Of a stretch of 44,513 nt of DNA, positions 1-22,368 are shown in pieces (the stretch's first letter is position 1; every line of letters starts with the position of its first letter). Under the pieces are notes generated by a model that made no database searches, was not told the DNA's origin, and saw only the letters and a program-made list of their open reading frames with translations. The stretch comes from Escherichia phage Gluttony. Where the stretch lies: sequence record NC_031113.1; one strand, given 5' to 3'. A program made the translations under genes and the position numbers.

Positions 1-127
1 ATGCCGCTGGTGGCCTTAACCTCGTAGGTCCATACGGCATCGATCACATGCTCGCGGAAGTCGGGACCGGACTTCACCTTGCGCTTGCCTACCATGATAA
101 TATCGCCGCGGTCTATGGTATTGGCAC
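1..127. repeat. 127-bp terminal direct repeat, identical to 44387..44513; likely assembly overlap of a circular or permuted genome
   Basis: First 127 nt of the window match the last 127 nt base for base; a minus-strand ORF reads through this junction. Confidence 0.9.
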
Positions 128-344
128 TAAACAAGCCGGTACGCATGAGCAAACCTTGCGGTATACAACTGCGCCCGCCTGCTTGCCCTTCAAGGTACAT
201 GCCCGCAAACATTTCGCCCAGCACACCGACCAGTCGGCTTTGCTTGCACGCGTCGGACTTTAAGCGCCATTGGTCAAACTCGATGCTTGCTACCATTGCC
301 GCCAGGTGGAATTGTTTACCGGATATTTCATATTCGCCGTACAT
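1..344 (-). CDS. 5' part of a wrap-around gene (start codon at 344) encoding a putative PD-(D/E)XK-like nuclease-fold protein, about 191 aa in full
   Basis: Hand translation of the minus strand is open from ATG at 344 down to position 1 and in frame with the ORF at 44155..44481 through the repeat; GAGGA RBS before the ATG at 344; in-frame stop at 381-383; D...EVK-type motif (GDIIMVGKRK...VIDAVWTYEVKATSG). Confidence 0.5.
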   Translation of the reverse strand, partial: MYGEYEISGKQFHLAAMVASIEFDQWRLKSDACKQSRLVGVLGEMFAGMYLEGQAGGRSCIPQGLLMRTGLFSANTIDRGDIIMVGKRKVKSGPDFREHVIDAVWTYEVKATSG

Positions 345-386
345 CGTGTGGTCCTCATTGATGCGGGCCGAAGCCCGCGATTAGAA

Positions 387-965
387 TTATTTCAGTGCGC
401 TACGTACCAGTGTTTTTTCCATGTTGCGGAAGTCTTCCGGCGTCATGAGGATTTTGGACCCATCCTCTCCAGTGAGCACGACCATAGGCTGGACGTCCTG
501 GGCCGCTACGCCGAAATTGGCGGCTTTGACAGTCTTCCCGAACGAGGCCACCACACCTTCGGCAACGCGCATCGCACTGTTATACGCATTAATCTCGCCA
601 TCTAGTCGTACGGACAGGTCTTTGAGGCTGTCGAATTGTGCTGCCGTTGTGTCGATCTGGATCTCGTCATGCACGGTCATGTACGACTCGCCCAGCAGTG
701 CGGCATATGCTACCAGGTCAACGATGTTATCGTCCTGGTGCTTACGGTGCTGGCGTACCAGCTTCAGGCAGATCAAGAAGGTCCAGGCTTCTTGCTCGGT
801 CAGGTCGCGACCGGTAAGCGCGTTAAACACGTCAGCGATCTGTTTAGCGCTACGCTCTTCTTTCGCGTTGTCATAGCCGTTTTCTTTTCCGCGCTGTTCC
901 ATAGTGGTGGCGGCGTTTTTGCAGTATTCGTATGCTTTCATTATGTGGTCCTTTTTAGGGGCCAT
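387..965 (-). CDS. Hypothetical protein, 192 aa (alternative start at 941)
   Basis: ORF track; helical, charged sequence; function not recognised. Confidence 0.5.
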   Translation of the reverse strand: MAPKKDHIMKAYEYCKNAATTMEQRGKENGYDNAKEERSAKQIADVFNALTGRDLTEQEAWTFLICLKLVRQHRKHQDDNIVDLVAYAALLGESYMTVHDEIQIDTTAAQFDSLKDLSVRLDGEINAYNSAMRVAEGVVASFGKTVKAANFGVAAQDVQPMVVLTGEDGSKILMTPEDFRNMEKTLVRSALK

Positions 966-1470
966 ATCGCCCCGACGAGTTAACTATAGTGCAACCAATA
1001 GGTTGGTTGCAAGTAAATTTTGCAACGTTTATCGCATAAATTTTCGAGACCAGATCGCTGCACGCCCGTCGAATGGCCGCGATGTTCTTCGGGCAGTCTT
1101 CAATGATGACCAGTTCCGATACGTCCGCATAGCAGACCATTTTGAACACGGCGCACGCTTTAAACTCTGGCGGCGGGGTATCGTCCAGCATGTGGCGCAT
1201 AAACAACCGGCCTACGGGGAATACTTCCAATTGCTCGACGGTAGTCTCCCAGCATTCTCGCTGCCGGTTGGTCAGATACGCGATCTCGAAGCCTTGCTCT
1301 TTGTACATGGTCAGCAGCGGCAGCATATCCATGTTCAGATCTTCGCGTATATGCGCTTTGTGCCACTTCGCCCAAAAGGTGGATTTTGTTTTTATACCTG
1401 GCACCAGGTCGGCACGCGCATCGCTTGAACCATTAATAACGCCATCAAGATCACAAATCAGTAGTTTCAT
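955..1470 (-). CDS. HAD-superfamily phosphatase-like protein
   Basis: N-terminal LICDLDGVI matches the HAD motif I (DxDG) pattern. Confidence 0.5.
   Translation of the reverse strand: MKLLICDLDGVINGSSDARADLVPGIKTKSTFWAKWHKAHIREDLNMDMLPLLTMYKEQGFEIAYLTNRQRECWETTVEQLEVFPVGRLFMRHMLDDTPPPEFKACAVFKMVCYADVSELVIIEDCPKNIAAIRRACSDLVSKIYAINVAKFTCNQPIGCTIVNSSGRYGP
984..1012 (-). promoter_or_regulatory. Sigma70-like promoter (TTGCAA-17-TATAGT) inside the palindrome TTGCAACCAATAGGTTGGTTGCAA
   Basis: -35/-10 spacing read on the minus strand; contains the recurring ATTGGTTGCA motif; lies inside the 3' end of the upstream ORF. Confidence 0.4.
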
Positions 1471-1691
1471 TTTAATTCCTCAACCAAATCCGAACGAACA
1501 ACTCTGGCGGAAAACTTGTTACACACAAGATGCCAATTTGCGGTTATGACAAGCCAGCCGGTAAGGTCCAGACCCAGGATATATTCTGGACGTGACACTC
1601 GCTTCACACGATCGCGGCGCGGATCGATGTTATAGTCTCTTTGCATTCGGTCTACTACCGCAGGGTCGCGGTCAACGATTAAGATATTCAA
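1467..1691 (-). CDS. Hypothetical protein, 74 aa
   Basis: ORF track; overlaps neighbours in operon fashion. Confidence 0.35.
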   Translation of the reverse strand: MNILIVDRDPAVVDRMQRDYNIDPRRDRVKRVSRPEYILGLDLTGWLVITANWHLVCNKFSARVVRSDLVEELK

Positions 1692-2157
1692 GGAGTTCTC
1701 CTTCGCTCATTATTTCAATTTGTGCGCTGCCGGTTGGTGGCGCTTCGTCAAATATTATCAATTGCTGGCACTTGTTATTGCTCGGCCCGACTTCACCGGT
1801 GACAGCGTGTATAAATCTCACCCGCCAGTCCAGAAGAATTATCATATTGGCAGTCTTCCGGGCCAACTTCGCCCACTTCGTCGACGTGTCCTGATTCAGT
1901 AGCATGACAGTCCGGCGACCGTGCGCTGCGCATTCCACCCACGGCAGCGGGTCGGAATACGGCGGATTGCACCACTTCCACCCTTTCAAATCAGCCCAGT
2001 CCACATCAAGCGCGCTATGTTCTGCTGTGAAGTAACGCGGTAGCAGGTGGTTGGCATCGCTTGCCGCCATATCGTAACGGAATCGGTATTTCCGACGAAG
2101 CGGTTTGAATAAAGCTGGCGGCGTGCGCCAGCTATCTTTTTGCTCACTCTTCTGCAT
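1672..2157 (-). CDS. Phage DNA N6-adenine methyltransferase (Dam-like)
   Basis: WRTPPALF and CNPPY motifs typical of the phage Dam family. Confidence 0.8.
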   Translation of the reverse strand: MQKSEQKDSWRTPPALFKPLRRKYRFRYDMAASDANHLLPRYFTAEHSALDVDWADLKGWKWCNPPYSDPLPWVECAAHGRRTVMLLNQDTSTKWAKLARKTANMIILLDWRVRFIHAVTGEVGPSNNKCQQLIIFDEAPPTGSAQIEIMSEGELLEYLNR

Positions 2158-2608
2158 GACCTGGATCTATCGCGTATAAAGGGACTTTATTGCCGGTTTT
2201 CATAACGCGCTGGACGCGCTTTGACTCCTCGGCGCTCATTGGGCGCATATCAGTGCTATAACCACCGTTTGATGTGTGCCGCCACGCTATCAGCACCAGA
2301 TCTTTCCGGTCGATCTTAGACTGGCGGCCCTTCGGTCGCACGTACGCCTCGGCCCGTTTGCAATGCTCGCGCAGACCTTCGGCAGTGATGCGGTTTAGCG
2401 CGACGGTGGTTGTGTACCCGGTGCGCTGCATAATACCCATCAACCCATACAGCAGTTCGAAGCGCTCCTCTAACTCCTTGCGCATCTTTTCCTCGCCTTC
2501 ATAGCTCGCCAGGTAGGTATCCGCCAGCGCGTTCGCCCGTTCGACCTGTTCGCGGGCTTCGAGGCATTGCGCGGCCCAGTAATTTTTCTCTTCTTGTAAA
2601 ATTTTCAT
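2144..2608 (-). CDS. Hypothetical protein, 154 aa
   Basis: ORF track; coiled-coil-like N-terminus. Confidence 0.45.
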   Translation of the reverse strand: MKILQEEKNYWAAQCLEAREQVERANALADTYLASYEGEEKMRKELEERFELLYGLMGIMQRTGYTTTVALNRITAEGLREHCKRAEAYVRPKGRQSKIDRKDLVLIAWRHTSNGGYSTDMRPMSAEESKRVQRVMKTGNKVPLYAIDPGHAEE

Positions 2609-2655
2609 CGTGTTGTCTCCAGGTATTAAAAAGGGCGTCCAAACCGGACACCCTC

Positions 2656-2684
2656 AATATAAGGCAACCAATATGACTATGCAA
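2656..2684 (-). promoter_or_regulatory. Sigma70-like promoter (TTGCAT-17-TATATT) built from two ATTGGTTGC motif copies
   Basis: Read on the minus strand upstream of the ATG at 2608. Confidence 0.4.
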
Positions 2685-2689
2685 CCAAT

Positions 2690-3013
2690 TTACGCATAAA
2701 AGTTCGGGTCGCGTGCAACGTCTACCAGGTAAAGGTTGCTTATGCGGTTGCCGTAGTGCCCTGGAGTGCGCTGGCGGCACACAACGGCGAAGCCTGGAGG
2801 GATTGTATTGCCCGTCTCAATAATCCACGCCACGCGTGCGCCAGACAGCGTCTTGCCGTTGTATTCGATACGTGTTCCGCCATCGGCGGTATTGAGGTTG
2901 CCAATTTTGCAGCCGGTGGACTTCAGACGAATGACGCCGGTTTTGCTGTCGTAGGAGAATAACTGGTTAGTCATTGCAACCGAAAAATCGATGGCTTCGA
3001 ATGAAGTATTCAT
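2690..3013 (-). CDS. HNH_3-like (NUMOD-type) endonuclease-like protein, possibly degenerate
   Basis: RVAWIIETGNTIPPGF...NRISNLYLV resembles the HRLVW...IDH...NLRLV pattern, but the catalytic D-H is not evident. Confidence 0.45.
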   Translation of the reverse strand: MNTSFEAIDFSVAMTNQLFSYDSKTGVIRLKSTGCKIGNLNTADGGTRIEYNGKTLSGARVAWIIETGNTIPPGFAVVCRQRTPGHYGNRISNLYLVDVARDPNFYA

Positions 3014-3705
3014 TTTAAATTTTCCTCGTTAACCGCTATCGCGAAGCCGCGCGGAGTGAGCGACCGGATTAATTTTGTGCGGGCTGATTTGCCTCCGAGG
3101 CGACTATACTGCTTCGAGTACCCTTTTTCAACGAAAACAGGTCTCTTCTCTGGCATACGGAAGCCGTTGCCGGTCCATAAGCAGGTCAGCTTCGGATATG
3201 AATCGCGGGCGTTGATGTATTCCGGGAAGAGCGGGTGTACGTCATCCTCCGGCAGATATCCCCCATACTCCCACGGGTCGAATGAGTGATCCGGCTTGCG
3301 CCACTGGGTGGAAAGCACACTGCGCGGATTCTCAATCATATACGGCACTTCGAAGAAGTCACCCAGGTACGCGGCGATCTTCGCGGTGCGCACCGCCTTA
3401 AGCTGGAAGGCCGGGTCGCGGGCGCGTTTGCGCGGGAAAGCTGGCGCACCGCTCACCGCCAGATCAGTACACGGCGGGAATGCGTAGATGATATCTGGCG
3501 TACCGAAATCGCCATTCATCGCGCGGTCTACAAAGTCCAGATCAATAAACTCATTGCGATATCGGATCCCGCGACCATAAATCCGGTAGTCCAGGTACGA
3601 CCCGTGATCGGCTTCGGAGTAGTTAAAACAGTAGCACTTATGCCCCATCTCGGCAGCACGCTCAATCATCAAGCCGCTGCCGTCAAACAATGACCAGATT
3701 ATCAT
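3010..3705 (-). CDS. DNA cytosine-C5 methyltransferase-like protein, short at 231 aa
   Basis: Motif I-like LFDGSGL, PC motif FPPCTDLAVSGA, ENV-like IENP. Confidence 0.5.
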   Translation of the reverse strand: MIIWSLFDGSGLMIERAAEMGHKCYCFNYSEADHGSYLDYRIYGRGIRYRNEFIDLDFVDRAMNGDFGTPDIIYAFPPCTDLAVSGAPAFPRKRARDPAFQLKAVRTAKIAAYLGDFFEVPYMIENPRSVLSTQWRKPDHSFDPWEYGGYLPEDDVHPLFPEYINARDSYPKLTCLWTGNGFRMPEKRPVFVEKGYSKQYSRLGGKSARTKLIRSLTPRGFAIAVNEENLK

Positions 3706-5126
3706 TTGCGCGCCTTCTTAGCTTTCATGTATTCCATCAAGTCGTCCTGAATATCCCGCTTACTGTCGCGACGCTCGGCGACCAGTTCGTCCAGTGTTCC
3801 GCGCGCCTGGATAATGTAGACGAATACCGGTCGAGGGTGCCCGGCCTGCATCTGGCGAACCGGCCCGATACGCTCAACGATCTGCGAAAAGTGCTCAAAG
3901 TTCCAGGTATCGGAGAAGATTGCCAGGTGATGACCGCCGTCCTGCAAGTTAAGGCCGTGGCCTGCCGATGCCGGGTGTGCAAACATGATGGGGATCTCAC
4001 CCCTGTTCCACGCTTCCATATCCTTATTGCCCTGCTTACCTTTACCCAACGCAACGCCGTGCGGAAATTTCTTCTTAAGTCGTGCCAGGTCATGCTTATA
4101 CTGATACGCAACGAGCAACGGCGCGCCGTTCAACTCCTCTACGATACTCTCCAGCGCGTCCAGCTTCGCGTCGTGAATCTTCACCCACTCGTCGGTCCGT
4201 TCGCCGTCTTCGTCCACCTTATACACGGCCCCGGATGCAAGCTGAAGGCACTTAATTGTCTTCGACGCCGCGTTCGCCGCTTCCACTGTTCCGCTTTCCA
4301 GTTCTGCAAATAGCTCGCTTTCAAACTGGTCATAAATCTTACGCGCTTTCTTCGGCAGGTCCACAACAACCGGCGTATAGATTGGCTTGTCGCACCCGAA
4401 GTATTCCGCCGCGTCAACGGTGAGGGATACATCTGACAGACGTTGTTGTATCTCTTTCTCGGAGTTCTTTAGCGGAGCGTGCTGCATAGTGAAGCTGCTA
4501 GGCTTAACAGGCTTGCTAATGAACCAGCGGTCGGTAAATGCCTTATAGCTACTGCCGAGGCGTTCGCCACCGTCGACAAACCACGTCTGACCCCATAAGT
4601 CTTTTAGCCCGTTTGGCGCTGGTGTGCCGGTAAGGTTAATCCAGCGCTTGACGTGTTTATGTGCAATCGCTGCCAGTGCGCGGGCGCGCTTGCTCCCCTG
4701 CTTGCTACGATAGCCTTTCAGCTTAGTCGATTCATCGGCAACAACGACCGTAAAGGGCCACGCATCGCCGTAATAGTCGACCAGCCACTCAACCACATCA
4801 TAGTTAACACAAACCACGTTAGCGTCGCTCTCCAGCGCTGCAATGCGGTCCTTCTCTGGACCAGTGCCGTCTACTACCAGCAGGGCTGGGAAGCGCCATT
4901 TCTCCTGCTCCGGGGGCCAGGTGCCGGACGCAACGCGCAGCGGGGCCAGCACCAGTACGCGGTCCTCCTGGTTGGACAGGATACCCGTCTGGAACATTTT
5001 ATTCAGCGCCCACATTGTCGCGCCGGTTTTACCCGATCCCATTGTCGCCCATATATTACATCGCTTATGCTTGAGGATGAACGCGGTTATCAACTTCTGA
5101 TATTCGCGGCGTCGGAATCGTGCCAT
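3702..5126 (-). CDS. Superfamily II (SNF2/DEAD-like) DNA helicase
   Basis: Walker A MGSGKTG, DEST box, helicase C motif HPASAGHGLNLQ; start placed at MARF (5126) after a GGCGGA RBS. Confidence 0.8.
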   Translation of the reverse strand: MARFRRREYQKLITAFILKHKRCNIWATMGSGKTGATMWALNKMFQTGILSNQEDRVLVLAPLRVASGTWPPEQEKWRFPALLVVDGTGPEKDRIAALESDANVVCVNYDVVEWLVDYYGDAWPFTVVVADESTKLKGYRSKQGSKRARALAAIAHKHVKRWINLTGTPAPNGLKDLWGQTWFVDGGERLGSSYKAFTDRWFISKPVKPSSFTMQHAPLKNSEKEIQQRLSDVSLTVDAAEYFGCDKPIYTPVVVDLPKKARKIYDQFESELFAELESGTVEAANAASKTIKCLQLASGAVYKVDEDGERTDEWVKIHDAKLDALESIVEELNGAPLLVAYQYKHDLARLKKKFPHGVALGKGKQGNKDMEAWNRGEIPIMFAHPASAGHGLNLQDGGHHLAIFSDTWNFEHFSQIVERIGPVRQMQAGHPRPVFVYIIQARGTLDELVAERRDSKRDIQDDLMEYMKAKKARK

Positions 5127-5130
5127 ATCT

Positions 5131-5364
5131 TTATTCCGCCTTTTTCCAGACTTCAGTTTCACTGTTCCAGTTCCTTTTTGTGGCGTCGTAGTTGGTGGCG
5201 TGTCCGACGTGGACACCGGTAGCCCGGAAGCTCTTAAATTTTTGCCAGCACACCGTCAACGGCAGCGGATCATTCATGCCTGCGATAAACCATACGCGAT
5301 CGCCCGGTTTACATTCGCCCAGCTTGGTGAGTCGGTAATGTTCTTTCATCGTCATGTCTCCCAA
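5131..5364 (-). CDS. Hypothetical protein, 77 aa
   Basis: ORF track. Confidence 0.4.
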   Translation of the reverse strand: MGDMTMKEHYRLTKLGECKPGDRVWFIAGMNDPLPLTVCWQKFKSFRATGVHVGHATNYDATKRNWNSETEVWKKAE

Positions 5365-5392
5365 AAATGGCGGGACAAGCCCGCCGTATTAA

Positions 5393-5566
5393 TTATTTTT
5401 GTTCTGCACGGTAGCGGCGCTGCCGTTCGCGCTCTTTTTTATTGCGGCACGATTTGCACTCTGCCCGATACCCGTCTGGACTTCGCGCAGTCTTACCGGT
5501 GTATTTGTGGAACTGGGATAGCGGCTTTACACAGCCGCAATTACTACAACGTTTTTCTTCAATCAT
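5393..5566 (-). CDS. Small zinc-ribbon protein
   Basis: CSNCGC...CKSC cysteine pairs; start at MIEEK with a GAGGA RBS. Confidence 0.45.
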   Translation of the reverse strand: MIEEKRCSNCGCVKPLSQFHKYTGKTARSPDGYRAECKSCRNKKERERQRRYRAEQK

Positions 5567-5606
5567 CTCTAAAATCCTCGATATGGCTAACCGGCACACT
5601 ATACCG

Positions 5607-5885
5607 CTATGCGACCAATTCAGCAACCAATAAATCACAGTCGGCTATGCTGTCGATAACGCGAACGTCCGCACCGCGGCGGGCCATTCGCTCATGTTCT
5701 CGTACCTGGTGCGGCTTAGGTTTACCGCCTGGGCGCTTCACTTCGACGAAAACTATCTTGCCGTTGATGATGATAATCAGATCGGGCGCGCCTGCGCGCC
5801 CCTCCCACGCCACTTTACGGCAGAATCCGCCAACCTCTTTAACCCGTTTCATAAGGTGACGCTGCACCTTGCCTTCTGGTGTCAT
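5607..5885 (-). CDS. VRR-NUC domain nuclease
   Basis: VFVEVKRPGGKPKPHQ...E motif; ATG overlaps the upstream stop (ATGA). Confidence 0.7.
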   Translation of the reverse strand: MTPEGKVQRHLMKRVKEVGGFCRKVAWEGRAGAPDLIIIINGKIVFVEVKRPGGKPKPHQVREHERMARRGADVRVIDSIADCDLLVAELVA

Positions 5886-6514
5886 TGTCGGCTTTTCCTT
5901 ACGGCAGCGATGGCAGGTCCGATAAACTTCTTCATTTCGTCCGGGGTAAACCGATCCCCGCGGGCTATGTTGCACTCTACGCAGCACGGCACGCAGTTAT
6001 CTTTCGTATGGCCTACTGCGTTGTCGAGTCGGTCCGCGCCATTGTCGCCGGTGAATCCGCAGTATGCGCACGGCTGAGAAGTAAGGCGCAGCACGTCCTC
6101 TGTAGTAAGGTCGGTGTTTAGCCCCTTCCTTTCGTCTGCCTTACGGTACTGAAAGAGTTTATAGTAAGCGCGGATCTCTGGTGTCCGGTGGTTGTACTCG
6201 CGGCGTGACTTATTAGCGCACGATCGGCATTCTTTACGAATATGTGACCCGTTTGCTTGGCTTCCTGGCCGGAAGTTTTCCGGCGTGAGCGGCTTGCGCT
6301 CACCGCACGTACGACATGTTACGATCTCCCCGGTGTACTCTCGCCATACTTCTCTCGGCGGCGCGCCTCTTTCCTTATCCCGTCTCTCTTTCTTATATGC
6401 CGCCATGCATTTGGCGCACCACGACTGGCCCTTGTTGAAAGCGGACTCATCTTTACCCGTATTACAACGCCCACAATGTTTCATATACACCTCGAAAAAG
6501 AAAACGCCAGACAA
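5882..6514 (-). CDS. HNH endonuclease with N-terminal zinc-finger repeats
   Basis: CAYCGF...GH...N..CCVECN HNH-type motif. Confidence 0.7.
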   Translation of the reverse strand: MSGVFFFEVYMKHCGRCNTGKDESAFNKGQSWCAKCMAAYKKERRDKERGAPPREVWREYTGEIVTCRTCGERKPLTPENFRPGSQANGSHIRKECRSCANKSRREYNHRTPEIRAYYKLFQYRKADERKGLNTDLTTEDVLRLTSQPCAYCGFTGDNGADRLDNAVGHTKDNCVPCCVECNIARGDRFTPDEMKKFIGPAIAAVRKSRQ

Positions 6515-6550
6515 TAATGCCCAACGTTTCCGCTAAAAGCAACATTTCCG

Positions 6551-8842
6551 CTACTTGCGGTAGCGATACATGCAATCGCCCTCTGCGGCAAGTGGGAAGC
6601 CTTTCGCCCAAATAGGCAGGTCGCACATCAGCGCGCAAAGCTCCTCTGTCGTGTAGTCGTCGGTGTCCGGCACTTCTGTGATCAATTCATCATGCACCGA
6701 TAGAACGATTTCATAGCCCGCAGCTTCAACGCCAGGCATTGACCAGGCGAGAATATCACGGCACAACGCCTGTACTATGTTCTCCGTCAGTTTGCCGCCG
6801 TAGGTATACTGGAAGCCCCACTGGCGCGTCGTCTGATTCTCGCCCTGATATTTAATGCGGGTGCTGGTGCGTTTCTTGCCGGTATCTTCGTCGATCTCGG
6901 TCGTCACTGACAGCGCAATGCCTGGATAACTCATAATACGCCCCGACGGCAACTCAATTTTCAACCACCACCCCGCGGCGTTCGGGTCGTCGCGTTCCTC
7001 GTCGAAGGTTGGGTCATGCTTCGCCTTCGTGCGGACTATCTTGAGCGCTTTCTTACCATCCGGGCGAACGTTCGCGCCAGCCCAGTACGCTTTGCCAGGA
7101 TTGCGGATTGCACACAACACCGCGTCCTCAAGCTCGGCCCAAAAGGCTACCGTCTTCGGGTGAGCCTCGCGCCACATGCGTTTAATCGCATCACACGTAA
7201 GCCATACGTTTTTCGGCAGTATGTAAGTCGGGCGCTCGTCCTTCTTGCCAGGCTTTGGCGGTCGCTTCGCTTCGTTAATGCGGGCGTACTCATAACCCCG
7301 TTTAGCCGCTGCCCAAATGTGATCGGGGAATGTGCCCTTCATGACGTCCGCCATCGCGTAAAGGTCGAGGCCCAGGTTTTTAGCGAACTGCAAGAACGCC
7401 GCGACGCCGCCACCATAGCCCAGCCCCAATTCGCACGCCTTACCGATCTGGCGTAAGTCCTTGCGGTTAGCTTTAATGTAGTCCGGGTCCAGGCCGAACA
7501 TCTTACCGGCAGTCTCACAATAGATATCGCGACCGGCCTTAAACACCATTAGCGCGGTTTTCTCGCCTGCGATCCAGGCAAGTCCACGCCCTTCCACGTT
7601 GGAGTAGTCCGCTACGACAAACTTCTTGCCCTTAGCCGGGATAATGCACCCGCGAACGGTCGAGGCTGTTAGCTTAGATATGTCATACGCCCAGTGCGCG
7701 GTCCCGCGTAACAGGGAATTGATGCCGTTGGTGAGCATGTGCGACCGGACCCAAAAAGCAACGTCGCTCTCGCCTTCGCGGCGCTTAATCTTCCCTTCGT
7801 GATCGTCGCTATACTCGCCGCGTGCCAGGTTTTGAGGCTGGAAGCCTTTACCCGCCCAGCGCAGCGTGCGCTTTGCACCACCATACTGAAGACACCCACG
7901 GCGGCGACCATCTGCGGATAAGCCGTTAACTAGCGGATTGTACTTAGTCGATGCCGTTGATGACGCTCCGAGGCGCATTTCTATAAGCGCTTTGCCTTCG
8001 TCGGGGAAGTCCGGGTCTTCAAGCAGGTCGTTAAGTGTGGATTTCTGCGCGTTGTGGATCGTGAACGCCGGGGCGATATCACGTAGGATTGGCAGGAAGT
8101 CATTGCCGGTCAGCTTACCGCCAAATCGCTCCCAGGCTTCCTCTTTCAATTCTTCCTTATGCGCCTGTACCGCTTTGATCGCAGCGCGCGCCAGGTCAAC
8201 GTCCACGTAGAAGCCGCGGTCGTTAATCAATTGGTCGATAAGCAGGATTTCGTCTTCCTTCGGCGTATTACCCCAGTCCGGTATGCGCCAATAGACTTCC
8301 CTCATCGCGATGATATCCAGCGCGGCATAGCGCAGGAATTTAGCCCACTCCTCGGGGTGCGTCTTGCGCGTGTAGCGGCGGATTTTGTAGGTCTTAGGGG
8401 TAGGCTTACAGAATCGTTTAATCAGCGCCTTGCCTGCCTTATCCTTCGCGTGCTCTGCGTCAACGCCCAGCACCTGACACTGCATATCGAGGCTACCCGG
8501 CAGCGCGTGCCGAAAGGCCATAATCATGGTATCTTCGATCTGGCTTACCGGCAGATCTATACCCCACTTCTCGCGAATAACAAGGCGGTCAAACAGGAGG
8601 CCGTTAGCCATCACTATTTTTGCTTTCTTGCGGGATACACGGCGGAGTGCCTTGCGCAGTTCACGCGGCATTGTTGGGGATTCAGTGGCATCCCATGTCT
8701 GCACGCGGCCTTCGTCGATGGCGTAGGTGCAAATCATAATCTCGGTGGTTTGGTGCTCTGCGTAGGCGTACGCCCCTACTTTCTTCAGGTCCACCCCGCT
8801 AAATGTCTCGGTGTCGAGAAACAGACGTTCGAAGTCTTTCAT
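6551..8842 (-). CDS. Family A DNA polymerase with 3'-5' exonuclease domain
   Basis: Exo I LDTETFS; motif A DYSNVEGR; motif B RKDLRQIGKACELGLGYGGG; motif C VHDE. Confidence 0.9.
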   Translation of the reverse strand: MKDFERLFLDTETFSGVDLKKVGAYAYAEHQTTEIMICTYAIDEGRVQTWDATESPTMPRELRKALRRVSRKKAKIVMANGLLFDRLVIREKWGIDLPVSQIEDTMIMAFRHALPGSLDMQCQVLGVDAEHAKDKAGKALIKRFCKPTPKTYKIRRYTRKTHPEEWAKFLRYAALDIIAMREVYWRIPDWGNTPKEDEILLIDQLINDRGFYVDVDLARAAIKAVQAHKEELKEEAWERFGGKLTGNDFLPILRDIAPAFTIHNAQKSTLNDLLEDPDFPDEGKALIEMRLGASSTASTKYNPLVNGLSADGRRRGCLQYGGAKRTLRWAGKGFQPQNLARGEYSDDHEGKIKRREGESDVAFWVRSHMLTNGINSLLRGTAHWAYDISKLTASTVRGCIIPAKGKKFVVADYSNVEGRGLAWIAGEKTALMVFKAGRDIYCETAGKMFGLDPDYIKANRKDLRQIGKACELGLGYGGGVAAFLQFAKNLGLDLYAMADVMKGTFPDHIWAAAKRGYEYARINEAKRPPKPGKKDERPTYILPKNVWLTCDAIKRMWREAHPKTVAFWAELEDAVLCAIRNPGKAYWAGANVRPDGKKALKIVRTKAKHDPTFDEERDDPNAAGWWLKIELPSGRIMSYPGIALSVTTEIDEDTGKKRTSTRIKYQGENQTTRQWGFQYTYGGKLTENIVQALCRDILAWSMPGVEAAGYEIVLSVHDELITEVPDTDDYTTEELCALMCDLPIWAKGFPLAAEGDCMYRYRK

Positions 8843-9009
8843 TGCTTTATCCTCACTACGGCGTCAGCGCTGCCGATCATGGAGAAGATGCCGTCTGACA
8901 GGGCAATCTCTTCGCCGTTGTTGCGAATCTCGGCAACTGTGAAATATTCCCCCAGTAGCTTAGACCATACTTTCATTCCGACTTTTACTTCGCTGGCTTT
9001 AATCCGCAT
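8840..9009 (-). CDS. Small hypothetical protein, 56 aa
   Basis: Hand-translated ORF (MRIKASEVKVGMKVW...) with an AGGA RBS; its stop overlaps the polymerase start. Confidence 0.3.
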
Positions 9010-9020
9010 TTTTCATTGTC

Positions 9021-9049
9021 CTATTAAAAAGCCCGCATTAAGCGGGCTT
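9021..9049 (-). terminator. Rho-independent terminator after the SSB-like gene
   Basis: 8-bp GC stem AAGCCCGC/GCGGGCTT followed by a T-run on the minus strand. Confidence 0.6.
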
Positions 9050-9067
9050 GAATAGTGGGCTTTGCCC

Positions 9068-9841
9068 TTAACGGCGGCGACGTTTACGTGGCGCTTCGTC
9101 TTCGTCGTCGTCCTCATCTTCGTCATCGCGTGGTTTACGACGTTTGCGAGGTTTTTCGTCGTCGTCGTCATCGCTGCGCTTGGACTTTTTGGACTTACGC
9201 GGCTTGTCGTCTTCGTCATCGTCATCACGACGTTTTGACTTTTTGGACTTACGCGGGCTTTCATCTTCGTCATCGTCGCCCAGGTCTTCGTCGGAACATG
9301 AAGACCCGCCACCGCCGAAGGCTTCTCCGTCATCGCGGAAGCGCATACCCAGCAGACCACAGCCTAAGCCTTTGCCGTTGGTATTGTTCCAGGCCCAAAT
9401 ATCTAAGGAAACGTTGCAATAGCAACCGGAATAGATTTCCTTCCCTTCGATTTCGTCGCCGTCGATGGTCAGACCCTGCTCCGTCTGCTTCTCGCCTTCG
9501 GAAGTCTGGATGATCGGCTGTTTGAATGATTTGGCATTGATGTACAGCTTTCCTTCAAACTCTTCCGTCACTTCTTCACGCTCGTCACCATCACGAACTG
9601 CACATTCTTTCGAATCCTGTGCGTAGTGGCGGTCCATCCACTTATCGGCGTTCTTTTCAGACTTCAGCTTTTCGGTGAGCACTGCGCGTGCCGCCGCTTC
9701 CACTTTGTCCACCTGCGGATCTTCTTTATCAAGAATAATCACCGCACGATATGCCGGTTTTTGTCCATCCTGTTTAGGGGTGTCACGCTCCCAAATTTTC
9801 GGGAAGCATACACGTACATTTTTCAGGTTGACTTTAGCCAT
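9068..9841 (-). CDS. Phage ssDNA-binding protein (DUF2815-like) with alternating acidic/basic C-terminal repeats
   Basis: MAKVNLKNVRVCFPKIWE N-terminus with GAGGAA RBS; C-terminal DDDEDE/PRKSKKSKR repeats. Confidence 0.55.
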   Translation of the reverse strand: MAKVNLKNVRVCFPKIWERDTPKQDGQKPAYRAVIILDKEDPQVDKVEAAARAVLTEKLKSEKNADKWMDRHYAQDSKECAVRDGDEREEVTEEFEGKLYINAKSFKQPIIQTSEGEKQTEQGLTIDGDEIEGKEIYSGCYCNVSLDIWAWNNTNGKGLGCGLLGMRFRDDGEAFGGGGSSCSDEDLGDDDEDESPRKSKKSKRRDDDDEDDKPRKSKKSKRSDDDDDEKPRKRRKPRDDEDEDDDEDEAPRKRRRR

Positions 9842-9937
9842 TTTCCAATTCCTCATTTCACATGTATCGGGGTTATTAGAAGCCACCCCGTCCGGCTTGG
9901 TTGCTAATGTACTTGGTTGCGTTTCCGCGGTCAAGTG

Positions 9938-10171
9938 TTATTTATTAAAAAGTTTTAAAATCAGGTCGAGATATTTGTGCAGCCACACCAGTGGCGGGCG
10001 GTGCACGTTGTTTTCCATCCAGTTCAAACAGGCTTCGTTATAGCCGTCGTCCCATAAGCGGGATGGGTGGCGAATCATCCAGGCCAGCGCCAGCAGACCG
10101 CCGCAGGTATGTACTACGAATCCCAGTGCCGCCAACGGCAGCACCATAATCATTGCCAGAATCTTATTCAT
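9938..10171 (-). CDS. Small membrane protein
   Basis: Two hydrophobic segments (ILAMIMVLPLAALGFVV, GGLLALAWMI). Confidence 0.4.
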   Translation of the reverse strand: MNKILAMIMVLPLAALGFVVHTCGGLLALAWMIRHPSRLWDDGYNEACLNWMENNVHRPPLVWLHKYLDLILKLFNK

Positions 10172-11594
10172 CGTTTAAATCCTCGTCGCTTGCTTCTTGC
10201 CATTCCGGGCGCGGGTCGTCAACTGGTGCCAGGACTGGTTTCGCAGGTGCACGCGTGATTTTATCTTGCAGCTTCGCCCACACTTTCGGTTTCTCATCCT
10301 TCAGCACCTTCTCGGCATCAGTAGGGCTGATTAATGATTCCTTGTACATCAGGTCGCGCTTGATCCGGGCCGTTGTGAATACAGCGATAACTTCGCTTTC
10401 ATCCTTCCACTTACGCGCACCTTCACGACCTGCTACCAGCTTCAGGCCCAGCGCTTCGCCGTCACCGGCTAACACTGCTTTGAATACGGCAGCCTCGATC
10501 GCTTTGATGTGCTGGCGCATGGTTTCCAGACCGTCGTAAGCCTTTTTCAATTCTTCCGTGGTCATTGCACCGGCTGGCGCTTCTTTCTCGCCACGCTTCG
10601 CACGTCGGGCCGCTTTCCGGGCTTCGCGGGCCATGTTCCGGTCGTGGTTTTTGCATTCTTCCTCGGTGGCAATGCTTACATCGTCGCCCAGGTCTTCGTC
10701 GGTTGCCGTTGGTGGCGTCATTGTGTCGATGGCGGCTTTAGCGCGGGCACTACATTGATCCGCAAATCGACACCACTGACACGCATCGGCGCTCGGACGG
10801 AAGTCTGCACGGGTGAGATTCTTCTTACCCTTAGCGAAGGCATCCAGGGCGGCTACTGCGCGTTTTGCTGCGTACTTGGCGAAGATTTCCAGTGCTTCCA
10901 CTGAAATATCCCACTCCGATGCGCCGCCGCAATACGGCTGGAAGATGACCAGGCGAACGGTGGTAATGTCGTACATCTTTTGCAGCTTGCGCAGCAGACC
11001 GAGCGCATACAGCATAAGCTGTTTGTTCTCTTTCGCCTCGACCTTATGGCGTCCGGTCTTCAGGTCGCCAACAATCAGCATGTACGTGCCGTCGGTCTTC
11101 TTCATGACCATAACCATATCGGCAGTACCGAAGGTTTTAATCACCTCGCCGTCAATCTCGTAGCCTTTGTGCAGGACGCGTGTCAGATCCGCGCGCATCT
11201 CGAGCTGAACAAACTCCGCCACTTCGAGGAGCGGTCGCCAGTGGTCGATGTACGCGTCGCACTGTTTCACCATATCGTCGTTGACCAGTACGCCGCCTTT
11301 CGGTGCTTTCGGGTGTGCCTTTACTGGCCCCTTTCCTTCGTTCTCGACGTAACACCCTTTATACGTCTTTGCGGTTATCAGCTTTTCACCGGCGATAATG
11401 CGGTTTAGCACGACTTCAGATACGGTGTGCATACTCGTACCGTTAATCGCGGCTTGCCCGGATTCGTTTGGGATATCTTTTTCTACCACCAGAGCGGCAG
11501 GGCAACCCATCCATTTTTTAGCACCGGACGGCCCGAGTAATGAGTGTTCGGTATTGCTACCGGATTGCGTCTTACGTTTTGGTTTAATCGCCAT
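10164..11594 (-). CDS. PD-(D/E)XK (RecB/Cas4-like) exonuclease with Cys cluster and C-terminal extension
   Basis: GTADMVMV, IVGDLKTG, QLMLYA motifs; CQWCRFADQC cluster. Confidence 0.65.
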   Translation of the reverse strand: MAIKPKRKTQSGSNTEHSLLGPSGAKKWMGCPAALVVEKDIPNESGQAAINGTSMHTVSEVVLNRIIAGEKLITAKTYKGCYVENEGKGPVKAHPKAPKGGVLVNDDMVKQCDAYIDHWRPLLEVAEFVQLEMRADLTRVLHKGYEIDGEVIKTFGTADMVMVMKKTDGTYMLIVGDLKTGRHKVEAKENKQLMLYALGLLRKLQKMYDITTVRLVIFQPYCGGASEWDISVEALEIFAKYAAKRAVAALDAFAKGKKNLTRADFRPSADACQWCRFADQCSARAKAAIDTMTPPTATDEDLGDDVSIATEEECKNHDRNMAREARKAARRAKRGEKEAPAGAMTTEELKKAYDGLETMRQHIKAIEAAVFKAVLAGDGEALGLKLVAGREGARKWKDESEVIAVFTTARIKRDLMYKESLISPTDAEKVLKDEKPKVWAKLQDKITRAPAKPVLAPVDDPRPEWQEASDEDLNDE

Positions 11595-11773
11595 TATTCC
11601 ACCCTTGTAAACTGGACAATTACATATTTCACATTAGCCAGGCCCGCTTTTTCGACTCGGCGCTTAACTTCATTTTGCGCGTCCACAAAGCAATTGCTTG
11701 CGTTGGTGTTTTCAACAATAAAAGAAGTGTGATCGTTTAATTCGTGGCAAGTTGCCATGACGAAGAATTTCAT
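11594..11773 (-). CDS. Small hypothetical protein, 59 aa
   Basis: ORF with GGGAGA RBS; start overlaps upstream stop (TAATG). Confidence 0.35.
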   Translation of the reverse strand: MKFFVMATCHELNDHTSFIVENTNASNCFVDAQNEVKRRVEKAGLANVKYVIVQFTRVE

Positions 11774-12024
11774 TATTTTGTCTCCCAGCGGTCGATTGTT
11801 TTTGCTTCGGATGCAACTGCGAAGCGAACATATTCCAGATTTGAATCCGCCCAAATATAAAAGTCGGGATTAATAAAGGTGGTGCGCTTAATTTGCGCGG
11901 GGGTGTTGCGGCGTTTGTCTATTACGGCAACGCGTGACTGAAAGCTGCCGATGCGTTCGAATAGCCAATAGTACGGGCGCTGGTCGCGGGAATCCACCGC
12001 CTCGATTAGCGTGAATCGTGCCAT
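11773..12024 (-). CDS. Hypothetical protein, 83 aa
   Basis: ORF track. Confidence 0.4.
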   Translation of the reverse strand: MARFTLIEAVDSRDQRPYYWLFERIGSFQSRVAVIDKRRNTPAQIKRTTFINPDFYIWADSNLEYVRFAVASEAKTIDRWETK

Positions 12025-12035
12025 TGTCTCGTCCT

Positions 12036-12065
12036 CTAAAAATAGGCCCGCAGATTAGCGGGCCG
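12036..12065 (-). terminator. Rho-independent terminator after the first leftward early gene
   Basis: GGCCCGC/GCGGGCC stem followed by TATTTTT on the minus strand. Confidence 0.55.
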
Positions 12066-12072
12066 GATAATA

Positions 12073-12579
12073 TTAATCTTCCAGTTCGAAATAAGTTTCG
12101 ACGATTTCTTTTAGCTCTTTGTGGAAGTCTTCGACGTCGTCATCTTCCAGCTTAGCGATTGATTTGATTTCGAACGCGTCCAGCAGATCATCAAATTCGT
12201 CGTTCGCGTCGTCGTCATCACCGCCCGCGATAATCGCGGCATACTGTTTGATCTCGTCGCGCATCTCCGCCAGCGGATCGGCATCTTTCTTGCCTTTGCC
12301 CTTCGCCGGTGCTTTTTTAGACTTAGCCGGTTTTGCGTCTTCGGCGTCTTCGTCGTCATCTTCGACTACTTCTTTTTTAGCCTTACCTTTCGCCGGGGCT
12401 TTTTTAGATTTAGCCGGTTTTTCGTCTTCGTCGTCATCTTCGACAACTTCTTTTTTGGCCTTAGACGGCTTCTTGTCTTCCTGCTTACCAACGGCAGCGC
12501 CAACGGTTTCATAATGCTTAGCGATGACTTCCAGTGCTACTACGCCGCGAGTGATCAGGTTTACGATTTGCTCAAACAT
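12073..12579 (-). CDS. Highly charged tandem-repeat protein, first gene of the leftward early operon
   Basis: Start at MFEQIV with GGAG RBS; two copies of KKEVVEDDDEDEKPAKSKKAPAKGK; polyacidic C-terminus. Confidence 0.6.
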   Translation of the reverse strand: MFEQIVNLITRGVVALEVIAKHYETVGAAVGKQEDKKPSKAKKEVVEDDDEDEKPAKSKKAPAKGKAKKEVVEDDDEDAEDAKPAKSKKAPAKGKGKKDADPLAEMRDEIKQYAAIIAGGDDDDANDEFDDLLDAFEIKSIAKLEDDDVEDFHKELKEIVETYFELED

Positions 12580-12775
12580 GGTATATCTCCGATTGGTTAA
12601 GTTTAGGTGTCGGCAGTTAACTTCGTCGGTGGCCTTAACATATTGCCAGGTTACGCGTTCTCCCGTTCGGGTAGTGGACCTGGTTATATAATCACGGTTG
12701 GGAATCCTGACACTTCGATCCGGCCCCTGCGTTGCCCCTCTCCAGTTTGCGTCCTGCATCCTGTCGACGGAGTGA

Positions 12776-12805
12776 ATGATAGATTGGTTGCAGGATGGGT
12801 GTCAA
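12776..12805 (-). promoter_or_regulatory. Leftward early promoter (TTGACA-18-TATCAT)
   Basis: Consensus -35 read on the minus strand, about 190 nt upstream of the ATG at 12579. Confidence 0.5.
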
Positions 12806-12816
12806 CAACTAATTTC

Positions 12817-12851
12817 AAAAAAAAAGCGCCGAGGCAAAATGCGACGGCGCT
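12817..12851 (-). terminator. Orphan minus-strand intrinsic terminator in the divergent control region
   Basis: AGCGCCG/CGGCGCT stem followed by nine T on the minus strand. Confidence 0.45.
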
Positions 12852-12921
12852 AACCAATAAGAGACAATGAGACGGGAATTATTATTACACGCGTGCGCGC
12901 CCGTTTCAATATCCAAAGGAT

Positions 12922-12950
12922 TTGACACCATGCAGTTTTAGGTGTAGTTT
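12922..12950 (+). promoter_or_regulatory. Rightward early promoter (TTGACA-17-TAGTTT)
   Basis: Perfect -35 hexamer about 35 nt upstream of the ATG at 12982. Confidence 0.5.
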
Positions 12951-12981
12951 CGTTGGTCATTAACCAACAGGAGACTGAATT

Positions 12982-13311
12982 ATGAATATCAAAGAAGCAA
13001 TTGAAGTGTTATCTAATGCAATCCGCGGCGAAGCGGGTAAATCCTGGTATTACACAAATGCGGTGGATACTCTGTTATTTGAAGTGTCCAGATTATCGCG
13101 TGCTGAGAAGGAGCTTACCGCGAAGCTGGAATTGCTCAACGGCACGGCAGCAAGCAAGCTGCAAAAACACAATGAAGAAATGGAAGAATACAAAAAACAG
13201 GTTATCCGTCTACGTGAGGAAGGTAAATCCTGGGCGATGATTGCCGAGTTGACCGGAATTAATCAGAGCACAGTGCGCTCCTGGGTACGCAATAATAAAA
13301 CTTCTAAGTAA
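12982..13311 (+). CDS. HTH DNA-binding protein, putative transcriptional regulator
   Basis: C-terminal KSWAMIAELTGINQSTVRSWV helix-turn-helix; coiled-coil middle. Confidence 0.5.
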   Translation: MNIKEAIEVLSNAIRGEAGKSWYYTNAVDTLLFEVSRLSRAEKELTAKLELLNGTAASKLQKHNEEMEEYKKQVIRLREEGKSWAMIAELTGINQSTVRSWVRNNKTSK

Positions 13312-13321
13312 GGCCACGGCA

Positions 13322-15586
13322 ATGAGCTTAATTAAATTCGCTGTAACAAGACCCGCTAAAAAAGGCGAAAAAGCCAGGGCGGAAAACTTCCAGATGACGA
13401 CCGATGAATTTTTCGAATTTATCAAAGATGCGAAAGAGATATCGTCGGTGCATATCAACAAGACGGAAGATAAAGCCGAGTATGCGCGCCGCAAGCGTAA
13501 GGCCGATGGCATCGTAGCGTATACCAGTGACGGCTTACGCCGCAAGACCAGTGCGGTGGACCGCTCGATCCTGTTCTTCGATATTGACCGTACCGACACC
13601 CGCACCCTACGCCGCTGCCGTAAGGCTTTCATCGACGCGGGGCTGGAGCACGTATTTCACACCACAACCGGCGACCGCCACCCGCTGAAAGGCGGCACGC
13701 GTTGCGCTCGTTTCCTGGTGCTCACCGACAAGCCTGTACCGGCTGAAGACCTGGGCCGCGTCCAGTACGCACTATTACACCAACTGGGCCTGTCAGATGT
13801 GGACTTCGATGATTGTACGAAAGACACAAACCGCCTGATGTACCTGCCACACCAGCAGTCTGTTATTAAGTGCCACTACGGCAAGCGTGCCCGCGTCCGT
13901 CGTCTGCTTCGCCTGGCGGATAAGTTGGGCGTGGAGAAGGAGGAAGTACGCCGCGAGCTTACCCAGGGCGACGACGCAGTGGCAGACGGCATTCTGGACT
14001 GGTGCTTCCAGGCAGGATTCGAGGAGTTATCTTCCGGTCGCGGTTATGAAGTGCCGTGCCCGAACGAACATCTGCACAGCGGCGAAGGGTCGACGGCTAT
14101 CATGGTCAAGGATGGCGAGATCCGTTTCAAGTGTATGCACACCGGCAACGAGTGTTGCTCGGAACTGAACAGACACCAGCACCTGGCGCTACGTCTTATC
14201 GGGATCCCGGACCACCTGAACGTCGAGCCGCACAACATGTCACGTAAGCAAATCGCCGCCATCCTTCCGGGACTGGACGATGAGGAAGTGGAATCGTGCT
14301 ATGAACATATCGTTGATGCGGTCGGAGACGGCGACGAGTACGGCGTGTGTACTGATGCAGACCTGGACAACGAGCCGGTCGCACTGTTCAGTAAGCACGA
14401 CCCGATCATCGAAGGCCTGGTCAACTTCAAATCGACCTGGTATCTCGCCGGTGAGTCGAACATTGGCAAGTCGTTCTACGTGCTGGGCCAGATGGCGTCA
14501 GTATCTGCCGGTATTCCGTTCGGCGGTGCGAAGGTCGTCCAGTCTCATTGCTTCTATTTCGATGCGGAAGGTGGTGAGGCCTCCAACCAGCGTAAAGAAG
14601 CACTGCAGATCAAATATGAGCACGACCTGGACAAGCTGCACATTATCGATCTGCAATCACGCGGCTGGGATATCACCAGCAAATCCGGCTTGCGTGAAGT
14701 TATCAGCTTCATCAACCGCACCGCTAACGGCGAGCCGGTTGGCCTGGTGGCGTTCGACTCACTCAACCAGACTGTTGCGCTGCGGTCCGCCGATGCAAAA
14801 CCGTTCGACGAGAATAACGCCAGCGATATGGGTGAAGTGGTCAAAGCGCTGAAGGCCATTGCGGAAAATACAGGCGGCAGTGCGGGCGTCATCCACCACC
14901 CGGCGAAGGGTGCAAACGGCAGCAGATCTCCCCGTGGGTCCGGCGCGCTGCATGGCGCTGTCGATTCTGCGTTCTTCCTGGAACAGCCGGACGACAACCA
15001 GCCAGGTCAACTCAACCTGTATCACGAAAAATCCCGTAACGGCATCAAGCAAGCGCCGCGCGGCTTCGTCCTGCTCAAGTGCAAGGTTAAGGTGGATCTC
15101 CGCAAGTCCGAGGCGTTCGAAGCCCACCAGTCCACCAGCACCGGGCCGGACTTCGGTGACGTCGTTGCCGGTTGGGACGTCAAGCCGATTGCCTCCACGC
15201 CACGCGACGAGACTCTTTACCTCGTACCGGTCGCCCTGGCACCGTTCGCCATTGAGCAGGCAAAGGCCGCTGGCAAGGCCGCAGTTAAGGAAGAGAACGC
15301 CGCAGGACCGCGCAACGAAAAAGAGAAAGTGCTTTATGCAGCGCTGGAAAAACTGATGGAAGATAACCCGGACCATACCGGATTCAGCAAATCGGCAATT
15401 GTCCGCCAGGCTGGGCTTGCGAAAGGTGGCACATCGACGAAGGCAATTGACGATATGGTCGAGCGCGGCGTGCTCGGTTTTTATACCGATCCGCACACCG
15501 GGGCCATCTATGGGTCGTCGAATATCGTCATCAAAACGAAGATACCCATCACGCTTTCGGCGACCGATGACGACTTAAAAGATTAA
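13322..15586 (+). CDS. Primase-polymerase (AEP-like) fused to a RecA/DnaB-like ATPase; replication initiator candidate
   Basis: FFDIDRTD acidic motif, Cys/His zinc cluster, Walker A GESNIGKS, Walker B FYFDAEGG. Confidence 0.7.
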   Translation: MSLIKFAVTRPAKKGEKARAENFQMTTDEFFEFIKDAKEISSVHINKTEDKAEYARRKRKADGIVAYTSDGLRRKTSAVDRSILFFDIDRTDTRTLRRCRKAFIDAGLEHVFHTTTGDRHPLKGGTRCARFLVLTDKPVPAEDLGRVQYALLHQLGLSDVDFDDCTKDTNRLMYLPHQQSVIKCHYGKRARVRRLLRLADKLGVEKEEVRRELTQGDDAVADGILDWCFQAGFEELSSGRGYEVPCPNEHLHSGEGSTAIMVKDGEIRFKCMHTGNECCSELNRHQHLALRLIGIPDHLNVEPHNMSRKQIAAILPGLDDEEVESCYEHIVDAVGDGDEYGVCTDADLDNEPVALFSKHDPIIEGLVNFKSTWYLAGESNIGKSFYVLGQMASVSAGIPFGGAKVVQSHCFYFDAEGGEASNQRKEALQIKYEHDLDKLHIIDLQSRGWDITSKSGLREVISFINRTANGEPVGLVAFDSLNQTVALRSADAKPFDENNASDMGEVVKALKAIAENTGGSAGVIHHPAKGANGSRSPRGSGALHGAVDSAFFLEQPDDNQPGQLNLYHEKSRNGIKQAPRGFVLLKCKVKVDLRKSEAFEAHQSTSTGPDFGDVVAGWDVKPIASTPRDETLYLVPVALAPFAIEQAKAAGKAAVKEENAAGPRNEKEKVLYAALEKLMEDNPDHTGFSKSAIVRQAGLAKGGTSTKAIDDMVERGVLGFYTDPHTGAIYGSSNIVIKTKIPITLSATDDDLKD

Positions 15587-15700
15587 AATTTGCGCGCATT
15601 GGTCGCCGATATGGGGATTCCCATATCGCTAGACGATTAAATTTTGCGCGCATTGGTTGCCATTTTGAGTGTTTTTATCTGGTCGTATTGGTTGCCGTGT
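15584..15700. repeat. Direct repeats TTAAA(A)TTTGCGCGCATTGGT(C/T)GCC x2 flanking the palindrome CGATATGGG-GATT-CCCATATCG
   Basis: Read directly downstream of the primase-helicase stop; a third ATTGGTTGCC copy near 15687. Confidence 0.6.
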
Positions 15701-15744
15701 AGTGTGAATATAGTGAATAGTTATGCAGTTTTATTGCATAAAGT

Positions 15745-15902
15745 AAGCGGGACAAAAAGCGGGACAAACAAGGGGCGGGACAAAGCGGGACAGCACCCCC
15801 GTCCCGCCACGGATGGCGCGGCTTCCAGAGGAGCGGGACAGCGGGACAGCACCCCAGTCTTTCAGACTAGACGGGGGTCAATGGCCCCCCTCGTCTGAGA
15901 CT
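15745..15902. repeat. GCGGGACA iteron-like array A with 3' hairpin module; putative origin or regulatory cassette
   Basis: At least six GCGGGACA copies at about 11-bp spacing, then CAGTCTTTCAGACTAGACGGGGG...CCCCCCTCGTCTGAGACTG; near-identical to 31965..32124. Confidence 0.6.
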
Positions 15903-16062
15903 GAATAAAATCCGGGGATTGCAAAATACACGGCAGCATGATGCTAAGTGCGGTCGTCGATGAACTAGGCAACCAATGCAGGTTGTATTATGCTGAGTGA
16001 AAATGCGGTTTGCAGTCACAGCAGATAGCGATCAACTTTTTCATGCGCGTGATTAATATTGG

Positions 16063-16091
16063 TTGCACCCTGCCTGGCGCCCTGCTATATT
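16063..16091 (+). promoter_or_regulatory. Sigma70-like promoter (TTGCAC-17-TATATT) formed by two TATTGGTTGCAC copies
   Basis: Spacing counted directly; 29 nt upstream of the ATG at 16120. Confidence 0.5.
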
Positions 16092-16119
16092 GGTTGCACA
16101 CCAACAAGAGGACTGAACG

Positions 16120-16425
16120 ATGAAAGCATTAATCTGGAATTACACATCAGCGGTCGCAGCGCTCTATGAAGCGAAGCACACAAACGGCAACGCCGACCAC
16201 GCACGCCAGGCTGTAATGTTCGCGCAGCAGGCAATCTTTGCAGCGTTCGACAACATGGGCGTCAGCCTGGATGAACTGGAACCATTGCGTGTGGCAATCT
16301 GCGAGTATGCGATGAAATTCGCCCGTGAGCGTCTTGCGTACCGGTTTGGCATCGGAGAGACGGCAGTGACTAACATCGCTCGCATCACGGCTCAGCGTGA
16401 GCTACACGCCTTACTTGCGAAATAA
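16120..16425 (+). CDS. Hypothetical early protein, 101 aa
   Basis: ORF track; RBS AGAGGA. Confidence 0.5.
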   Translation: MKALIWNYTSAVAALYEAKHTNGNADHARQAVMFAQQAIFAAFDNMGVSLDELEPLRVAICEYAMKFARERLAYRFGIGETAVTNIARITAQRELHALLAK

Positions 16426-16434
16426 GGGGCTAAA

Positions 16435-16704
16435 ATGGCACGTAGACGCGCTAAATGGTTATCCTGGTATATTCCCCTGCATAGCATCCGTTTATGGGCG
16501 CAGAATGCGATTGAGGGTGATTCTGTGTTCTGGAGCTATCGGGATGACGTCAAGCCGCTGACGCAGACCAAAATGCTGCACCAGTTCATGAACGAACACG
16601 GACTGCCGGTGAAAACATCATTGCAACCAATCGGCATCCGTATTACATTACGCCGTAAGCCAATCGTTGCGCAGGTTGGCAAACACAAGAGACTGAGCAA
16701 ATGA
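16435..16704 (+). CDS. Hypothetical early protein, 89 aa
   Basis: ORF track. Confidence 0.45.
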   Translation: MARRRAKWLSWYIPLHSIRLWAQNAIEGDSVFWSYRDDVKPLTQTKMLHQFMNEHGLPVKTSLQPIGIRITLRRKPIVAQVGKHKRLSK

Positions 16705-17813: not shown

Positions 17814-17830
17814 TTATGCAAGCGTGATAT

Positions 17831-18876: not shown

Positions 18877-18892
18877 TACGAGGAGACACAGT

Positions 18893-19054: not shown

Positions 19055-19060
19055 ACTACC

Positions 19061-22358: not shown

Positions 22359-22368
22359 GGAAACGACC

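Follow-up and report, generated by a model that had tools for sequence, protein, structure and literature searches.

Terminal duplication in the Escherichia phage Gluttony record: an untrimmed assembly overlap that splits the gene of a predicted PD-(D/E)XK nuclease

The 127-bp duplication found at the two ends of the Escherichia phage Gluttony sequence stems from an overlap in the assembly; it does not belong to the phage DNA itself. All coordinates given here are positions in record NC_031113.1, whose full 44,513 nt we call the window. We consider that the window is the untrimmed circular contig of a headful, permuted Dhillonvirus, and we put the probability of this whole explanation at roughly 0.92. 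The minus-strand gene that seems to be broken by the ends of the record is real and whole, and its splitting is an accident of the point at which the contig was opened.

The identity of both ends was verified base for base. Positions 1..127 and 44387..44513 agree at 127 out of 127 bases in the end comparison, as the sequence-only reading had claimed. When the whole window was checked, 127 was the sole length at which a prefix exactly overlaps a suffix, and the 127-mer is present in exactly two copies. An exact match of 127 bases cannot arise by chance. Subtracting one of the copies leaves 44,386 bp of unique sequence. The first copy (1..127) is real genomic sequence and holds codons 73-115 of the gene lying across the junction, while the second (44387..44513) is redundant, an assembler artefact with the length of the SPAdes maximum k.

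Joining the ends restores a minus-strand ORF of 576 nt (191 aa) that runs from 344 to 1 and proceeds in frame from 44386 to 44155. Its start codon is the ATG at 344..342 and its stop codon is located at 44157..44155. The joined translation showed that every coordinate proposed earlier for this ORF was right. In the linear window neither half is complete, the 344..1 part being devoid of a stop and the part at the other end being devoid of a start. The cut lies inside the 576-nt gene and, consequently, the gene appears split. Its 5' part (1..344, minus strand) comprises codons 1-115 of the predicted PD-(D/E)XK-fold nuclease, as judged from the translation and from a match to phrog_10558. The 3' part (44155..44386, minus strand) extends from the rest of codon 115 to the stop, and the length of the joined ORF equals that of its homologs.

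The junction gene is the final gene of a leftward (minus-strand) operon that also carries polymerase and helicase genes. A Shine-Dalgarno motif, GAGGA (352..356, minus strand), can be read in the sequence 8 nt 5' of the ATG, so that the good ribosome-binding site noticed beforehand is indeed there. Directly upstream lies a DUF6378 gene (387..965, minus strand). The 42-bp spacer between this gene and the junction gene contains a small GC hairpin, GCGGGC-CGAA-GCCCGC (363..378), which was read from the sequence and was not called by the terminator scan. At the other side, the junction gene converges with the tail-fibre gene (42290..44131, plus strand). Between them, the terminator scan found on both strands a terminator-like hairpin (44131..44156), which is common to the two genes and lies downstream of both.

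Further information was obtained from related genomes. Gluttony is a Dhillonvirus (HK578/SO-1-like), a virulent siphophage infecting E. coli, and practically the same phage as Lust. Escherichia phage Lust shows 100% identity over the region 20000-44386, which more than 140 members of the genus match at 90-95%, and the region 1-20000 is 98% identical to phage Pride. The Lust record (KX534338, 41,942 bp) corresponds to 8554..1 followed directly by 44386..10999, with 99.98% identity over 41.9 kb. The Pride record (KX534341) corresponds to 24832..44386 followed directly by 1..25212, with identities of 99.995% over 24832-44386 and 98.4% over 1-25212. The 127-mer is present once in Lust and once in Pride. 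Each of these records has an intact annotated CDS of 576 nt over the joint (ANY29860.1 in Lust and ANY30030.1 in Pride), which differs from the joined Gluttony gene by a single base (position 293, V18I) located outside the overlap. Moreover, a 2-kb joined query (43387..44386 plus 1..1000) was found contiguous in 155 phage records and, among the matches listed, the joined site is at least about 2.2 kb away from any record end, save in PQ843332. An exact terminal overlap was searched for in the Lust, Pride and UDS3lw records, and none of them contains one.

The records of the two closest phages deserve a comment of their own. The Lust record is labelled as a complete genome, yet it is an open contig: the missing stretch, 8555-10998, starts inside the DNA polymerase I gene. 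The Gluttony sequence is thus a closed, more complete version of Lust. In the Pride record, bases 1-137 are an inverted copy of 25012..24877, and about 380 bp (24832-25212, inside a head-morphogenesis gene) are present at both ends. Both features are those of assembly ends left untrimmed and in part chimeric.

The length of the duplication points to its origin. The largest default k of SPAdes is 127 and, when this program writes out a cyclic path in linear form, the first k bases of the contig reappear as its last k. In Gluttony the ends are exact and their length is that of an assembler k value, while in independent assemblies the segment is single and the joint is run through. Such "127 bp artificial overlaps" at contig ends are a documented artefact (PMC5923482). 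In a coliphage genome announcement, "terminal repeats of 127 bp" were taken as the sign of a circularly permuted genome and then trimmed (PMC8104045). The earlier proposal that the duplication is an assembly overlap instead of a pair of fixed ends is therefore upheld by its length, equal to the SPAdes k, by its single copy in Lust and Pride and by the contiguous junction. The use of a SPAdes-type assembler with k = 127 is what we infer from these data.

We propose that a de Bruijn-graph assembler working with k = 127 (the SPAdes default maximum) would have walked along a cyclic path and cut it at an arbitrary point. It would then have printed the last k bases again at the opposite end, the cut landing inside the 576-nt gene. 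Dropping one 127-bp copy and joining the ends recovers a 44,386-bp circle with an intact gene. This circle is a map, as distinct from the molecule. The virion DNA is expected to be a linear product that a headful (pac) terminase cuts out of concatemers. It would be circularly permuted and terminally redundant, without fixed ends at 1 or 44513.

The sequence-only reading had also taken the genome to be circular or permuted, as in headful packaging. For headful packaging the overlap by itself is insufficient, and support comes instead from PhageTerm analyses of relatives, from the terminase and from the scattered starts of the deposited records. Strictly, what the overlap alone demonstrates is a closed assembly graph. 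A graph of this kind also results from cos ends, or from true terminal repeats elsewhere that collapsed in assembly, and therefore headful packaging needs separate evidence. Three relatives provide it. For UDS3lw, which is 94% identical to Gluttony over 20000-44386, PhageTerm indicated headful packaging with a preferred pac site (PMC13348001). For Opt-212, PhageTerm predicted headful packaging, and the five SO-1-like genomes of that study were circularised and re-opened at the small terminase gene (PMC9022532). For BF9, PhageTerm gave a headful (pac) mechanism and a permuted genome (PMC10059673).

Among the packaging genes of Gluttony, the large terminase subunit (20973..22358, plus strand) matches Pfam Terminase_6N and Terminase_6C above their cut-offs and aligns along about 88% of its length with Jerseyvirus terminases, at about 40% identity; a sequence search against solved structures returned nothing useful for it. 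These Jerseyviruses have been typed as headful by PhageTerm, by a circular-type restriction pattern and by a broad PFGE band (K47), and their terminases group with the terminase of Dhillonvirus K19 and with that of P1 (PMC10783031). The large terminase of Gluttony is thus related to terminases typed as headful. The small terminase subunit (20401..20973, plus strand), one of the components that determine where the true ends of virion DNA lie, matches phrog_3064, labelled 'terminase', with an E-value of 2.6e-73. Its Pfam scores were below the cut-offs both for GP3_package of P22 (22.5 bits, cut-off 29.4) and for Sf6_terminase (19.9 bits, cut-off 27). The portal protein (22369..23889, plus strand) matches the phrog_145 portal family (E 2.2e-137) and Pfam DUF4055.

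In this respect, the way in which close relatives have been deposited is also informative. Their records start at more than 15 map positions scattered around the circle, and the one cluster of starts, at about 20.0-20.7 kb, corresponds to the convention of starting at the small terminase gene. Genomes of the same length have been deposited in different permutations, as seen for Envy versus Sloth and for ZCEC10, 11 and 12. No conserved genome ends are found among close relatives. Judging from these relatives and from the type of its terminase, Gluttony itself probably packages its DNA by a headful mechanism.

Other explanations have to be weighed against this one. The 127 bp might be genuine short direct terminal repeats, as in T7-like phages, in which case the nuclease gene would be split in the particle and restored by recombination or in concatemers. 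The ends are identical in the sequence as given, and one unrelated record has an end no more than 15 bp away from the repeat. However, the length is exactly the SPAdes maximum k, and the repeat falls wholly within conserved coding sequence (codons 73-115, among them those of the invariant residues D81, E108 and K110). T7-like repeats would be expected in non-coding DNA and at a conserved end, while here the repeat is coding and the site is not a conserved end among relatives. Moreover, every end of a relative near the site is explained by its own assembly, UDS3lw, Opt-212 and BF9 are headful according to PhageTerm and the terminase groups with those of headful phages. A true terminal repeat of exactly 127 bp, placed inside a conserved coding region and at no relative's end, is implausible, and we give this explanation next to no weight. 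The same holds for the related idea that the nuclease gene, split and inactive on the injected DNA and made whole after end joining, serves as a timer of nuclease expression, which is hardly credible.

The end of PQ843332 at about 142, 15 bp past the overlap, was considered as a real end and rejected. This record (P-GXEC-L2P5, 88,607 bp) is composed of blocks that step back by about 77 bp on the Gluttony map at each boundary. It amounts to about two related Dhillonvirus genomes, in which numerous genes are interrupted, and its first copy runs across the junction inside the record. PQ843332 is a chain of graph unitigs whose k=77 overlaps were left untrimmed; as an 88-kb genome it is not real. 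The genus has about 310 record ends, so that chance alone should place one of them within 150 bp of any chosen site.

It could also be argued that the overlap is artefactual but that the genome has fixed ends elsewhere (cos ends or longer collapsed repeats) and is not permuted, cases that a circular assembly graph cannot separate. The UDS3lw record starts at an intergenic position, 16019, next to a conspicuous repeat-and-hairpin element that contains GCGGGACA motifs, and this start might be taken for such an end. Nevertheless, UDS3lw was described by its authors as a headful phage with a pac site instead of fixed ends (PMC13348001), and BF9 and Opt-212 were called headful too. BF9 holds the 16-kb region inside its record, and therefore no pac site can be deduced from the UDS3lw start. 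The circular-type digest and the broad PFGE band of Jerseyvirus K47 (PMC10783031) also argue against fixed ends, which we consider unlikely. A truly circular replicon, either a plasmid-prophage or a circular replicative form, is still less probable and can practically be dismissed. The map closes perfectly, as it would for such a molecule, but terminase, portal, head and tail genes are those of a tailed phage, a type that packages linear DNA. In addition, papers on members of the genus report no lysogeny genes and call these phages lytic (PMC13348001, PMC10059673), and no matching prophage or plasmid context appeared among the database matches.

Coming back to the junction gene, the joined protein matches phrog_10558 from end to end (residues 1-191 of 191, E 3.7e-118), a family whose function label is "unknown". 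Its homologs are 191-194 aa long and form a very small family, since searches of 5.8 billion and of 1.84 billion proteins yielded 7 clusters and 15 representatives, respectively. Across 16 members of the family, with identities going down to 23%, residues E44, D81, E108 and K110 do not vary. D81 opens a predicted strand (81-91), and E108 and K110 lie within another one (99-112), the two strands being adjacent. The protein thus shows the D...(D/E)-x-K motif on adjacent strands that is typical of PD-(D/E)XK enzymes, and its predicted structure has the core restriction-endonuclease-like alpha/beta fold. Because of the invariance of E44, D81, E108 and K110 and of the position of D81 and E108-x-K110 on adjacent predicted strands, the junction protein is predicted to be a PD-(D/E)XK-fold nuclease. 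Searches against Pfam, NCBIfam and PADLOC gave no match, phrog_10558 being the only family hit, so that the protein is not assigned to the superfamily by a curated sequence model. PDB sequences returned nothing useful, and a viral fold library returned only uncharacterised phage proteins. The UDS3lw record labels the homolog of the junction gene as 'restriction endonuclease', which is an annotation and not a test, and this label is consistent with the prediction. Most likely, the junction protein is a putative Mg-dependent nuclease made from the leftward operon of replication genes.

As for the neighbouring gene, the DUF6378 protein (387..965, minus strand) also matches PHROGs labelled 'phosphofructokinase', and in some records its gene is named 'nucleotide modification associated protein'. 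Dam and C5 methylase genes are found nearby in relatives. The nuclease-like junction gene may be part of a small cluster concerned with DNA modification or anti-restriction.

We also observed several repeated elements elsewhere in the genome. A direct repeat of about 195 bp, with 83% identity between copies, is located at 15713-15907 and 31934-32128, one copy lying behind the primase/helicase gene and the other immediately ahead of the tape-measure gene. Each copy carries an array of the motif GCGGGACA followed by a strong hairpin (AGACTAGACGGGGGTC...CCCCCCTCGTCTGAGACT), and this arrangement is conserved in Lust, Pride and UDS3lw. The motif occurs 13 times in the window against 2.1 expected, a number reached in 0 of 100 shuffles. 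In UDS3lw (PQ658967), the last 620 bases or so (about 15770-15900 on the Gluttony map) carry, duplicated in tandem, the 3' half of the GCGGGACA array together with the hairpin, and the start of that record, 16019, lies about 110 bp downstream of the element. The array may be a candidate protein-binding array, acting as a regulatory, origin or packaging signal. As a weaker alternative, the array-plus-hairpin elements at 15.7 kb and 31.9 kb could represent an undescribed packaging or regulatory signal of Dhillonvirus.

A second motif, the 9-mer ATTGGTTGC, has 14 copies against 0.57 expected, with a maximum of 3 in 100 shuffles. The copies are found at 991, 2664, 2681, 5623, 12783, 15652, 15687, 15969, 16058, 16089, 16623, 26213, 26227 and 42328. 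They are often paired, and several lie in intergenic spacers; the 9-mer is a candidate promoter or operator motif of the phage. Short degenerate tandem and dispersed repeats rich in GTC/GAC and AAAAAG are present at 9097-9263 and 12114-12475, within the minus-strand ORFs 9068..9934 and 12073..12759. In the two early proteins concerned, both encoded on the minus strand, these repeats would give rise to low-complexity stretches of acidic/basic character.

For the record itself the practical consequences are modest. One of the 127-bp copies should be removed, which brings the sequence to its true length of 44,386 bp, the genome should be treated as a circular map with the small terminase gene (20401) as the conventional re-opening point, and the junction gene should be annotated as a single 191-aa protein instead of two fragments. 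An untrimmed overlap makes the genome too long, interrupts a gene call and could pass for terminal repeats. The headful, circularly permuted biology of Dhillonvirus has already been published for close relatives, and the duplication is an ordinary artefact on a known genome type, a correct but routine observation. The one addition of modest use is the assignment of the split gene to a very small family of predicted PD-(D/E)XK nucleases.

Compared with known systems, the junction protein differs from the PD-(D/E)XK superfamily in that it belongs to no Pfam, NCBIfam or PADLOC model and in the very small size of its family. Gluttony shares its gene order with the Dhillonvirus phages Lust and Pride, with which it is collinear, and its size and GC content (54.5%) fit the genus; the Lust record differs by lacking 2.4 kb (8555..10998). 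In the comparison with headful (pac) packaging as in P1, P22, SPP1 and the Jerseyviruses, the small terminase resembles P22 gp3 and Sf6 weakly, at scores below the Pfam thresholds, and the large terminase has T4-type ATPase and nuclease domains. Finally, the window reproduces what is known of the SPAdes 127-bp overlap, namely the same exact ends, the same length, an arbitrary intragenic cut and a gene restored by trimming. We found no difference between the two, the assembler itself being deduced from the sequence.
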